Shown: piece by piece, positions 919-61,402 of the stretch
Numbering within the stretch: the stretch's first letter is position 1
How the letters are laid out: every line of letters begins with the position of its first letter
Assembly: GCF_044324875.1 (NCBI RefSeq)
Contig: NZ_CP172185.1
Length of the DNA: 64,000 nucleotides
Origin: Escherichia coli
Lineage (GTDB): Bacteria; Pseudomonadota; Gammaproteobacteria; Enterobacterales; Enterobacteriaceae
Reading direction: 5' to 3' (one strand)
Made by a program: the position numbers and the translations under genes
Notes under the pieces: generated by a model
What the model was told of the DNA's origin: nothing
Database searches by the model: none
What the model saw: only the letters and a program-made list of their open reading frames with translations

Positions 919-3591
919 ATGACAGATGTAACGATTAAAACGCTGGCCGCAGAGCGACAGACCTCCGTGGAACGCCTGGTACAGCAATTTGCTGATGCAG
1001 GTATCCGGAAGTCTGCTGACGACTCTGTGTCCGCACAAGAGAAACAGACTTTGATTGACCACCTGAATCAGAAAAATTCAGGCCCGGACAAATTGACGCT
1101 GCAACGTAAAACACGCAGCACCCTTAACATTCCTGGTACCGGTGGAAAAAGCAAATCGGTACAAATCGAAGTCCGCAAGAAACGCACCTTTGTGAAACGC
1201 GATCCGCAAGAGGCTGAACGCCTTGCTGCGGAAGAGCAAGCGCAGCGTGAAGCGGAAGAGCAAGCCCGTCGTGAGGCAGAAGAATCGGCTAAACGCGAGG
1301 CGCAACAAAAAGCTGAACGTGAGGCCGCAGAACAAGCTAAGCGTGAAGCTGCTGAACAAGCGAAACGTGAAGCTGCGGAAAAAGACAAAGTGAGCAATCA
1401 ACAAGACGATATGACTAAAAACGCCCAGGCTGAAAAAGCCCGCCGTGAGCAGGAAGCTGCAGAGCTCAAGCGTAAAGCCGAAGAAGAAGCGCGTCGTAAA
1501 CTCGAAGAAGAAGCACGTCGCGTTGCTGAAGAAGCACGTCGTATGGCGGAAGAAAACAAATGGACTGATAACGCGGAACCGACTGAAGATTCCAGCGATT
1601 ATCACGTCACTACTTCTCAACATGCTCGCCAGGCAGAAGACGAAAGCGATCGTGAAGTCGAAGGCGGCCGTGGCCGTGGTCGTAACGCGAAAGCTGCGCG
1701 TCCGAAGAAAGGCAACAAACACGCTGAATCAAAAGCTGATCGTGAAGAAGCACGCGCAGCAGTACGTGGCGGTAAAGGCGGAAAACGTAAAGGTTCTTCG
1801 CTGCAGCAAGGCTTCCAGAAGCCTGCTCAGGCCGTTAACCGTGACGTTGTGATCGGTGAAACCATCACCGTTGGCGAACTGGCGAACAAGATGGCTGTTA
1901 AAGGCTCTCAGGTCATCAAAGCGATGATGAAACTGGGCGCAATGGCAACCATCAACCAGGTTATCGATCAGGAAACCGCACAGCTGGTTGCTGAAGAGAT
2001 GGGCCACAAAGTTATCCTGCGTCGTGAAAACGAGCTGGAAGAAGCGGTAATGAGCGACCGTGACACGGGTGCAGCGGCTGAACCGCGCGCGCCGGTTGTG
2101 ACCATCATGGGTCACGTTGACCACGGTAAAACCTCTCTGCTGGACTACATTCGTTCAACGAAAGTGGCCTCTGGCGAAGCGGGCGGCATTACCCAGCACA
2201 TTGGTGCATACCACGTTGAAACTGAAAACGGCATGATCACCTTCCTGGACACCCCGGGGCACGCCGCGTTTACTTCAATGCGTGCTCGTGGTGCGCAGGC
2301 AACGGACATCGTAGTCCTGGTTGTTGCTGCCGACGACGGCGTAATGCCGCAGACCATCGAAGCAATCCAGCACGCGAAAGCGGCGCAGGTTCCGGTGGTG
2401 GTTGCAGTGAACAAGATCGATAAACCAGAAGCCGATCCGGATCGCGTTAAGAACGAACTCTCCCAGTACGGCATCCTGCCGGAAGAGTGGGGCGGTGAAA
2501 GCCAGTTCGTACATGTGTCTGCGAAAGCGGGTACTGGTATCGATGAGCTGCTGGACGCTATCCTGCTGCAGGCGGAAGTTCTGGAACTGAAAGCGGTACG
2601 TAAAGGTATGGCGAGCGGTGCGGTTATCGAATCCTTCCTCGATAAAGGTCGTGGTCCGGTTGCTACCGTTCTGGTACGTGAAGGTACTCTGCACAAGGGC
2701 GATATCGTTCTGTGTGGCTTCGAATACGGTCGTGTTCGTGCGATGCGTAACGAACTGGGTCAGGAAGTGCTGGAAGCGGGTCCGTCCATTCCGGTGGAAA
2801 TCCTCGGCCTGTCCGGCGTTCCGGCTGCGGGTGATGAAGTTACCGTTGTACGTGACGAGAAGAAAGCGCGTGAAGTTGCACTCTATCGTCAGGGTAAATT
2901 CCGCGAAGTTAAACTGGCGCGTCAGCAGAAATCTAAACTCGAGAACATGTTCGCCAACATGACCGAAGGCGAAGTTCACGAAGTGAATATCGTCCTGAAG
3001 GCAGACGTACAGGGTTCTGTGGAAGCTATCTCCGACTCCTTGCTGAAACTGTCTACTGACGAAGTTAAAGTGAAGATCATCGGTTCTGGCGTAGGTGGTA
3101 TCACCGAAACCGACGCTACCCTGGCTGCGGCGTCCAACGCCATCCTGGTTGGCTTCAACGTACGTGCTGATGCCTCTGCACGTAAAGTGATTGAAGCGGA
3201 AAGCCTGGATCTGCGTTACTACTCCGTCATCTATAACCTGATCGACGAAGTGAAAGCGGCAATGAGCGGTATGCTGTCTCCGGAACTGAAACAGCAGATT
3301 ATCGGTCTGGCGGAAGTTCGTGACGTGTTCAAATCGCCGAAATTTGGTGCCATCGCAGGCTGTATGGTTACCGAAGGTGTGGTTAAACGTCACAACCCGA
3401 TCCGCGTTCTGCGCGACAACGTGGTTATCTACGAAGGCGAGCTGGAGTCCCTGCGCCGCTTCAAAGATGACGTTAACGAAGTCCGTAACGGTATGGAATG
3501 TGGTATCGGCGTTAAGAACTACAACGACGTCCGCACTGGCGATGTGATCGAAGTATTCGAAATCATCGAAATCCAACGTACCATCGCTTAA
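919..3591 (+). CDS. infB: Translation initiation factor IF-2 (890 aa)
   Basis: Full-length ORF with charged repeat N-terminal region and GTPase motifs ([17 protein letters not shown]); good RBS (aggaagg) upstream. Confidence 0.97.
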
Positions 3592-3603
3592 GGTTGTCTG
3601 GGT

Positions 3604-3690
3604 TGTAGGCCGGATAAGGCTTTTACGCCGCATCCGGCAGCCGTTGCCTGATGCGACGCTCGCGCGTCTTATCAGGCCTACACAGCCCTT
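3604..3690. repeat. REP/BIME-type palindromic element (gccggatg / catccggc units)
   Basis: Inverted copies of the canonical REP core (ggccggataaggc...gccgcatccggca, tgcgacgc...gcgtcttatcaggcctaca) in the infB-rbfA spacer. Confidence 0.6.
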
Positions 3691-3712
3691 TCCACCTGAG
3701 ATTAATTTTAAA

Positions 3713-3733
3713 AGGGGCTATGGCCCCTTTTTT
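3713..3733 (+). terminator. Short GC hairpin plus T-tract just upstream of the rbfA RBS (attenuator-like)
   Basis: aggggc-tatg-gcccct followed by tttttt, then caggag RBS and rbfA ATG. Confidence 0.4.
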
Positions 3734-3749
3734 GTCAGGAGAATTTATT

Positions 3750-4151
3750 ATGGCGAAAGAATTTGGTCGCCCGCAGCGCGTAGCGCAGGAAATGCAAAAA
3801 GAGATCGCTCTCATCCTGCAGCGTGAAATTAAAGATCCTCGTCTGGGCATGATGACCACCGTTTCCGGTGTCGAAATGTCTCGTGACCTGGCGTATGCCA
3901 AAGTATATGTAACGTTCCTCAACGACAAAGATGAAGACGCGGTTAAAGCGGGCATCAAAGCGTTGCAGGAAGCTTCTGGTTTCATCCGCAGCCTGCTGGG
4001 GAAAGCGATGCGCCTGCGTATCGTGCCGGAACTGACCTTCTTCTACGACAACTCGCTGGTTGAAGGGATGCGCATGTCAAACCTGGTGACCAGCGTGGTC
4101 AAACATGACGAAGAACGTCGTGTTAACCCGGACGACAGCAAGGAGGACTAA
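3750..4151 (+). CDS. rbfA: Ribosome-binding factor A (133 aa)
   Basis: Translation [23 protein letters not shown]... matches RbfA; the track ORF starts upstream at 3651 but an internal ATG with RBS gives the canonical length. Confidence 0.93.
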
Positions 4152-5095
4152 TGAGTCGTCCTCGTCGTCGCGGTCGCGACATTAACGGCGTGTTGTTGCT
4201 GGATAAACCGCAGGGTATGTCCAGCAACGATGCGCTGCAAAAAGTGAAACGGATTTATAACGCCAACCGTGCCGGGCATACCGGTGCGCTGGACCCGCTG
4301 GCGACCGGCATGTTGCCGATTTGCCTCGGGGAAGCGACGAAGTTTTCCCAGTACCTGCTGGACTCCGACAAACGCTATCGGGTCATTGCGCGTCTTGGAC
4401 AGCGTACCGATACGTCTGACGCCGATGGACAAATCGTTGAAGAACGTCCGGTAACCTTTAGCGCAGAGCAACTGGCGGCGGCACTGGATACTTTCCGTGG
4501 CGATATCGAACAGATCCCATCGATGTATTCAGCACTGAAATACCAGGGCAAAAAACTGTACGAATATGCGCGTCAGGGCATTGAAGTACCGCGTGAAGCG
4601 CGCCCGATTACCGTTTATGAATTGCTGTTTATTCGCCACGAAGGCAATGAGCTGGAGCTGGAAATTCACTGCTCAAAAGGCACTTATATCCGCACCATTA
4701 TTGATGACCTGGGTGAAAAACTCGGTTGTGGCGCGCATGTTATTTACCTGCGTCGTCTGGCGGTAAGTAAATATCCGGTTGAACGGATGGTGACCCTGGA
4801 ACATCTGCGTGAACTGGTTGAACAAGCCGAACAGCAGAATATTCCAGCCGCGGAGTTACTTGATCCATTACTGATGCCAATGGACAGTCCAGCTTCGGAC
4901 TACCCGGTGGTGAATCTTCCGTTAACGTCTTCTGTTTACTTCAAAAATGGTAACCCGGTTCGTACATCCGGTGCGCCGCTGGAAGGACTGGTTCGCGTTA
5001 CAGAAGGTGAGAACGGCAAGTTTATCGGTATGGGCGAAATTGACGATGAAGGCCGCGTCGCGCCTCGTCGCCTGGTGGTTGAATACCCGGCGTAA
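4151..5095 (+). CDS. truB: tRNA pseudouridine-55 synthase TruB (314 aa)
   Basis: Translation matches TruB; start overlaps rbfA stop (ATGA). Confidence 0.95.
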
Positions 5096-5106: not shown

Positions 5107-5135
5107 TTGCGATAACAGGTCGCTACGAGTAGAAT
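5107..5135 (+). promoter_or_regulatory. Sigma70-type promoter candidate for rpsO (TTGCGA-N17-TAGAAT)
   Basis: Near-consensus -35/-10 hexamers with 17-bp spacing about 110 bp upstream of the rpsO ATG, overlapping the truB 3-prime end. Confidence 0.5.
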
Positions 5136-5147
5136 ACTGCCGCTTAA

Positions 5148-5513
<366 letters not shown>

Positions 5514-5529: not shown

Positions 5530-5703
5530 AAAAGGGGGCCTGAGTGGCCCCTTTTTTCAAGCTGACGGCAGCAATTCACTGGAAACTAATGTATTGTTGC
5601 TATGAATGATCTTCCGTTGCAGAGGTTCGCGCGGCTAATGAGAGGCTTTACCCACATTGGGCTGGGTTAGGGTTGTCATTAGTCGCGAGGATGCGCAGAA
5701 GAT
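5530..5703 (-). ncRNA. sraG: Antisense sRNA SraG (PsrO) in the rpsO-pnp spacer; position approximate
   Basis: Placement is from recalled K-12 synteny (SraG lies opposite the rpsO-pnp intergenic region); not verified from sequence signals. Confidence 0.4.
5532..5558 (+). terminator. rpsO intrinsic terminator
   Basis: gggggcc-tgagt-ggcccc hairpin followed by tttttt immediately after the rpsO stop. Confidence 0.7.
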
Positions 5704-44977: not shown

Positions 44978-45005
44978 AAAAACCCGCTTCGGCGGGTTTT
45001 TGCTT
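44978..45005 (+). terminator. rnpB intrinsic terminator
   Basis: aaaacccgc-ttcg-gcgggtttt hairpin followed by a T-tract. Confidence 0.7.
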
Positions 45006-61373: not shown

Positions 61374-61402
61374 AAAAAGGGGCGAAATATCGCCCCAATT
61401 TT
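61374..61402. terminator. Bidirectional intrinsic terminator between convergent yhaJ and yhaI
   Basis: ggggcg-aaatat-cgcccc hairpin flanked by A-run upstream and T-rich sequence downstream. Confidence 0.6.

Follow-up and report, generated by a model that had tools for sequence, protein, structure and literature searches.

A hairpin between infB and rbfA of Escherichia coli as the very probable intrinsic terminator t3 of the metY-rimP-nusA-infB transcription unit

What role can a terminator-like structure play inside a polycistronic unit, a few nucleotides in front of the ribosome-binding site of one of its genes? The question is raised by a short G+C-rich hairpin followed by a run of T residues that separates infB from rbfA in a stretch of 64,000 nucleotides of Escherichia coli DNA (contig NZ_CP172185.1 of assembly GCF_044324875.1), analysed here as a whole and referred to as the window. 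Our analyses identify this hairpin, very probably, as t3, a canonical Rho-independent (intrinsic) terminator that belongs to the E. coli metY-rimP-nusA-infB transcription unit. The element has already been described, and the value of the present work lies in its confirmation, not in any novelty. As a terminator that is partly read through, t3 would set the amount of the ribosome-maturation factor RbfA and of the tRNA pseudouridine synthase TruB relative to IF2 and NusA, and a part in the cold-shock response has been ascribed to it.

The locus is a common one in the species, with 601 bases round the hairpin finding a match in 5425 of 5426 complete E. coli genomes at a top identity of 99.8%. According to the list of open reading frames and to the annotation of E. 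coli strain N3 and K-12, the gene order is nusA (3' part)-infB-rbfA-truB-rpsO-pnp, and the hairpin lies between the infB stop codon (3589-3591) and the rbfA ATG (3750). The mechanical list of reading frames runs the rbfA frame further upstream to an ATG at 3651 (3651-4151), across both the REP repeats and the terminator. Support lies with the annotated start at 3750, which is preceded by a conserved Shine-Dalgarno sequence; the GGAG of the latter is invariant in an alignment of 69 sequences. A promoter scan of the window returned no promoter-like site between infB and rbfA. Further downstream, the same scan reported a promoter-like site for rpsO at 5107-5135, and an Rfam search placed the S15 leader (RF00114) at 5186-5300 with 117.6 bits and SraG (RF00082) on the minus strand at 5530-5701 with 162 bits.

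The window reads AAAAGGGGCTATGGCCCCTTTTTT from 3710 to 3733, i.e. AAAA-GGGGC-UAUG-GCCCC-UUUUUU. RNA folding returned one hairpin only, in which A3710-C3718 pairs with G3723-T3731 round the TATG loop, giving a stem of five G-C pairs and up to four A-U pairs (nine base pairs at most) closed by four nucleotides. The 50-nt stretch 3700-3749 folds at -13.5 kcal/mol, the G-C core alone at -8.7 kcal/mol. Two hallmarks of intrinsic terminators, a G+C-rich stem-loop (about 5-14 bp, loop of 3-8 nt) and a U run immediately 3' of the stem, are thus present, and this run ends 3 nt 5' of AGGAG and 16 nt before the rbfA ATG. The original prediction, made from the sequence, had placed the hairpin between a REP element and the rbfA ribosome-binding site, as the features on either side bear out (Table 1). 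It had also described a 6-bp GC stem followed by six T residues, 15 nt upstream of the rbfA start; the six T residues and the position just 5' of rbfA hold good, while the stem has five G-C pairs (adding a sixth, U-G, would shrink the loop to 2 nt) and the distance from the last T to the ATG is 16 nt.

Table 1. Features of the infB-rbfA-truB region, in window coordinates
Feature	Position	Strand	Basis	Remark
infB (IF2)	919..3591	+	ORF list; annotation of near-identical strain N3 and of K-12	gene 5' of the hairpin, where its transcripts end
inverted REP pair (BIME)	3608..3678	+	Rfam RF02564 (naRNA4), 78.7 bits, gathering score 59.5	variable accessory outside the conserved core
A tract	3710..3713	+	sequence, fold	can pair with U residues 1-4 of the tract and so lengthen the stem
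5' arm of terminator stem, GGGGC	3714..3718	+	sequence, fold	same in all 56 variants from 81 sequences
loop TATG	3719..3722	+	sequence, fold	
3' arm of terminator stem, GCCCC	3723..3727	+	sequence, fold, variant table	
terminator U6 (T6) tract	3728..3733	+	sequence	directly after C3727
expected RNA 3' ends	3735..3737	+	K-12 peaks transferred by alignment	by homology with K-12
rbfA Shine-Dalgarno AGGAG	3737..3741	+	sequence	on read-through transcripts only
rbfA	3750..4151	+	ORF list; N3 and K-12 annotation; translation verified	first gene 3' of the terminator
truB	4151..5095	+		next after rbfA

The surroundings of the hairpin are those of t3: it lies between infB and rbfA in the same gene order, and the spacer aligns with that of K-12. 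Brandi et al. (2019) placed two terminators of the operon, t1 and t2, ahead of rimP and a third, t3, 'just upstream of rbfA' (PMC6511841). According to these authors, a rimP-nusA-infB RNA of about 4.8 kb ends at t3 and lacks rbfA, and an RNA of about 6.7 kb, detected by all four of their probes, reads through t3 into rbfA; the rbfA probe sees only this read-through RNA (band 'a'), and mRNA levels follow the order nusA > infB > rimP > rbfA, infB being about twice as abundant as rbfA (PMC6511841). Further evidence comes from the tables of a TRS study of 2023 (Supplementary Data 2 and 3), in which a minus-strand 3' terminus of K-12 is listed at 3313188-3313197, the printed sequence being ...AAAAAGGGGCUAACAGCCCCUUUUUUGUCA; its peaks lie at 3313191-3313193 (-), its class is 'Alternative primary in TU' of infB, its local-readthrough statistic is 0.85-0.98, and its corrected p values are as low as 1e-218 or 0 (PMC10687069). 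Mapped on the K-12 sequence, the peaks 3313193/2/1 (-) are U, C and A, 2-4 nt past the U6 run, and by alignment they correspond to window positions 3735-3737, 8-10 nt past the last stem pair. Published tables therefore place in vivo RNA 3' ends just after the U run of the K-12 orthologue, so that the mapping of 3' ends near 3733, which had been proposed as a check on the hairpin, is in effect available for K-12 (PMC10687069). In the E. coli Term-seq list of Adams (2021), the interval 3311708-3318213 contains no 3' end on the minus strand (PMC7815308). Since that list also omits t1 and t2, both of which TRS detects, at 3318061 and 3318023 (PMC7815308, PMC10687069), we read this absence as low sensitivity at the locus and not as a contradiction. 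The proposal of a partial terminator or attenuator within the operon, tuning rbfA-truB relative to infB, is accordingly supported by the t3 transcripts and the K-12 3' ends, and also by conservation across 80 species.

We infer that release proceeds by the intrinsic mechanism in the window strain. During transcription of 3714-3733 by RNA polymerase, a GGGGC-UAUG-GCCCC hairpin would form in the nascent RNA directly behind the U6 tract. Owing to the weak rU:dA hybrid, the transcript would be released near 3735-3737, about 7-10 nt beyond the stem and just ahead of the rbfA ribosome-binding site. The shortness of the stem, whose core amounts to about -9 kcal/mol, would make termination incomplete and plausibly lies behind the leakiness of t3. 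The polymerases that read through would be the only ones to supply rbfA-truB mRNA, and would supply part of the rpsO-pnp mRNA. In this mechanism t3 may be pictured as a fixed 'valve' that keeps rbfA-truB mRNA lower than infB mRNA.

The conservation of the hairpin was followed in 80 rbfA loci, one per Enterobacteriaceae species, in 79 of which the infB-rbfA spacer was readable; species counts refer to 80 sequences (these 79 loci and the window), and the table of variants to 81 sequences comprising 56 distinct variants. A hairpin of the same design occurs just 5' of the rbfA Shine-Dalgarno sequence in all 79 readable loci, in the window and in K-12. The pairs were counted in a structure-anchored table, preferred to a MAFFT/RNAalifold alignment in which the G6 clade stood two columns off register and only four pairs were obtained. 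By this count the C-G pair and four G-C pairs are unchanged in 56 of 56 variants. The next two positions outward (stem positions 5-6) are A-U in 43-46 variants and G-C in 9-13, so that, where G-C stands in place of A-U, both sides of the stem have changed. Some variants carry an optional inner U-A or U-G pair, and 32 different loop sequences occur among the 80 Enterobacteriaceae sequences. The tail is kept as well: in 67 of the 80 species, six or more of the 8 nt that follow the C run are T. Where the tail is poorer (GTTTTG, GATTTG), the stem has seven G-C pairs and reaches -15 kcal/mol, a trade-off that would be expected of terminators. The retention of both stem and T run across 80 species fits a functional terminator.

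These data on the tail also bear on a different interpretation of the 3' ends. The hairpin could be an element of RNA stability that blocks 3'-to-5' exonucleases and protects infB mRNA, the ends then being those of longer transcripts trimmed back to it; 3'-end mapping alone cannot separate termination from trimming, and the TRS method is one of read-start enrichment (PMC10687069). REP elements, moreover, adjoin the hairpin in the window. Such elements are classically tied to mRNA protection. A barrier to exonucleases, however, needs neither the U tract that most species keep nor the compensation of a poorer one by a stronger stem, and the K-12 ends are mapped at the canonical distance past the stem, which together make this interpretation very unlikely in our judgement.

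A second use of the conserved sequence can be imagined on the other side of the termination point. Hardly any variation is seen from the T run through to the ATG, and the proximity of the U run to AGGAG could mean that the hairpin and the U-rich stretch 5' of the Shine-Dalgarno sequence serve rbfA translation on read-through mRNA, as a landing platform for the ribosome (protein S1) or as a 5' structural insulator, in which case their conservation would reflect translation and not termination. We regard this as unlikely, although it would be compatible with termination as a possible second function. In 26 of the 80 species (L005, L007, L008 and others) an additional 5-9 nt, e.g. TCTTTATTC, is found between the T run and the Shine-Dalgarno sequence with the hairpin kept, which argues against a tight structural requirement; the G-C stem has no obvious role in S1 binding, and transcripts demonstrably end at t3 (PMC6511841, PMC10687069). 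Among the 80 species, C run and ATG are separated by either 21-23 or 27-30 nt, a bimodal distribution.

At a greater distance, seven loci with RbfA only 50-63% identical were inspected, and a G5-6C...GC5-6 hairpin was found between infB and rbfA in three of them. These three (L089, L091 and L092, with RbfA 55-56% identical) carry GGGGGC-TTTG-GCCCCC, GGGGGC-TTAT-GCCTCC and GGGGGGCTTGG...CCAAGCCCCCC, respectively, with T tails that are weak or interrupted. No hairpin was found in the infB-rbfA spacers of the other four, i.e. L088 (assembly GCA_000754265.1), L093 (whose spacer measures 9 nt), L094 and L095.

The hairpin is the sole constant feature of an otherwise very plastic spacer, whose length ranges from 62 to 289 nt among the Enterobacteriaceae loci. 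Escherichia carries a REP pair and most genera carry a single REP of the GCCGGG...CCCGGC type; ERIC-like palindromes are present in several, and 13 species, with spacers of 62-69 nt, have no repeat and still have the hairpin. Across the fetched loci (L003-L082) the spacer appears as a hot spot of repeat insertion, always 5' of the hairpin. Elements with CACCCCGGTCACATAGTTATCTATGCTCCCGGGG, which we take to resemble ERIC, were seen in nine of the loci (L007, L013, L016, L021, L039, L040, L048, L051 and L057). The REP pair of the window scores 78.7 bits on the plus strand and 50.4 on the minus strand against RF02564; the naRNA4 'sRNA' family thus matches this REP pair, and that of K-12 too.

The presence of this REP pair at 3608-3678 invites the suggestion that the REP/BIME repeat acts as an antiterminator or is itself the terminating element. 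Indeed, Naville and Gautheret (2010) clustered the upstream regions of gatY, rbfA and cvpA as BIME-containing candidate attenuators and marked possible antiterminators (PMC2965389). The changing repeat content of the spacer (a REP pair, another single REP, an ERIC-like element or none), set against a hairpin that is always present, makes the suggestion extremely improbable, as does the restriction of the AGCCCTTT segment, which could pair with the 5' arm, to Escherichia and a few relatives. As an antiterminator candidate this segment was rejected. In the minimum free energy fold of 3585-3760 its CUUUC stays unpaired, and GGCCUACAC/ACACAGC, directly 5' of it, pairs elsewhere, toward the infB end, closing the BIME. 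An apparent long-range helix between upstream CCACCCGGCA or CCTGA and the Shine-Dalgarno region, seen in folds of 60 nt, was also rejected, because in most genera the upstream partner forms the 3' half of a REP stem and because the E. coli CCACCUGAG segment pairs toward the infB end in the longer fold. No conserved alternative structure in which the 5' arm of the terminator would be sequestered was found, the sequence 5' of the hairpin being variable, and every 60-nt upstream segment from the Enterobacteriaceae loci folds into the terminator hairpin.

Variation within E. coli respects the stem. Over 3690-3760, at least three alleles occur in 5425 genomes, 473 of which are identical to the window, 163 intermediate at about 96% and about 4788 K-12-like. 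The window therefore carries a minority allele, GGGGC-UAUG-GCCCC, as against GGGGCU-AAC-AGCCCC in K-12 and most genomes; the predicted core stabilities are -8.7 and -9.5 kcal/mol, respectively, and all the alleles inspected retain the stem. A natural disruption of t3 was encountered in strain 22AH104 (L086, NZ_AP043972.1 614100-615900), where an IS4-family element of about 1.3 kb lies inside the terminator hairpin and parts rbfA from infB. Its transposase is on the opposite strand, its junctions are at 368-379 and 1664-1675 of L086, and the target duplication is 12 bp long (GGGCTATGGCCC).

The weakness of the stem leads to a refinement of the intrinsic-terminator explanation that would not replace it. 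A core of -8.7 kcal/mol in so short a stem is of the kind expected to be sensitive to factors, and t3 might be a conditionally regulated attenuator in which CspA, CspC and CspE melt the stem after a temperature downshift, letting polymerase into rbfA-truB-rpsO-pnp, and NusA strengthens termination. In keeping with this, rbfA is cold-induced (PMC6511841), and Bae et al. (2000) are credited in later papers with the finding that CspA, CspC and CspE reduce intrinsic termination in the metY-rpsO operon and raise the expression of nusA and rbfA. Against it, the northern blots of Brandi et al. (2019) from before and after cold shock give no sign of a relevant change in read-through, and those authors ascribe the induction to new promoters and mRNA stabilisation (PMC6511841); overproduction of CspD, moreover, brought no rise in nusA or rbfA. 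Regulation of this kind is a tentative possibility, somewhat doubtful on balance, and we retain the intrinsic terminator t3 as the explanation that it would modify.

How unusual such a structure is depends on what is counted. The shuffle z-score of the 50-nt fold is modest (-1.86), because any G4C/GC4 composition folds well. A strict scan for at least five consecutive G/C pairs, a loop of 3-8 nt and at least five T within the next six bases returned five distinct sites in the 64 kb, the t3 hairpin among them, against 0.31 +/- 0.58 expected from 100 dinucleotide shuffles. The rpsO terminator at 5535-5551 is another of the five. Two further sites may be mentioned, one at 44983-44996 (CCCGC-TTCG-GCGGG), which has T runs on both strands and looks bidirectional, and one on the minus strand at 61379-61396 (GGGGCGATATTTCGCCCC-T5), a G4C-type stem at an unrelated terminator. 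A simple terminator scan of the window did not report the hairpin at 3710-3733, probably because extension of the stem into A-T pairs consumes the T tail, and terminators whose A tract lets the stem run into the T run may be missed systematically by scans of this type.

The invariance of the G4C/GC4 core suggested one further thought, namely that the core exceeds what stability alone would require: a single factor (NusA or Csp proteins) might recognise it as a common signature at three 'valves' of the rimP-nusA-infB-rbfA-truB-rpsO-pnp cluster and tune them together. The thought stems from the lack of any G-U or A-U replacement in the stem of 56 variants despite loops saturated with change, and from the recurrence of the core at about 55% RbfA identity together with its resemblance to the rimP-leader t2 and the rpsO terminator. 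If true, it would couple the output of ribosome-assembly factors to the levels of transcription factors. We hold it to be highly improbable, and the candidacy of the GGGGC...GCCCC stem as an operon-specific signature is weakened by the occurrence of the same stem type at the unrelated terminator at 61379-61396.

Set beside known terminators, the window hairpin is closest to K-12 t3 itself, which has the same place between infB stop and rbfA start and the same layout of A tract, G4C stem and U6, and matches the window base for base from the 3' arm up to the rbfA ATG; the allele on the loop side alone differs. Within the same operon, t2 of the rimP leader (RF01770) is, like t3, a short hairpin of a G run and a C run followed by a U run, and a leaky internal terminator. 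The K-12 t2, GGGCU-UUA-GGCCC-U7, is one G-C pair shorter than the common Enterobacteriaceae t3, GGGGCU-UAU-GGCCCC-U6, and t1 and t2 lie in the 5' leader upstream of rimP, whereas t3 is internal and intergenic. The RF01770 model found no match at 3700-3750 even at E <= 1 (gathering score 47 bits), as opposed to 102 bits for the true K-12 leader. A GGGc...gCCC signature is also stressed by Naville and Gautheret (PMC2965389). The likeness of t3 to rimP t2 and to the rpsO terminator is probably generic, given that a G4C stem also stands at the unrelated site on the minus strand. The gene cluster also holds the rpsO terminator (5535-5551), which shares the overall design of t3 (an AAAA tract, then GGGGCC-TGAGT-GGCCCC-T6) and is also partly read through; unlike t3, it has a stronger stem (-13.0 kcal/mol), follows the last gene of its own unit and overlaps the region of the antisense sRNA SraG.
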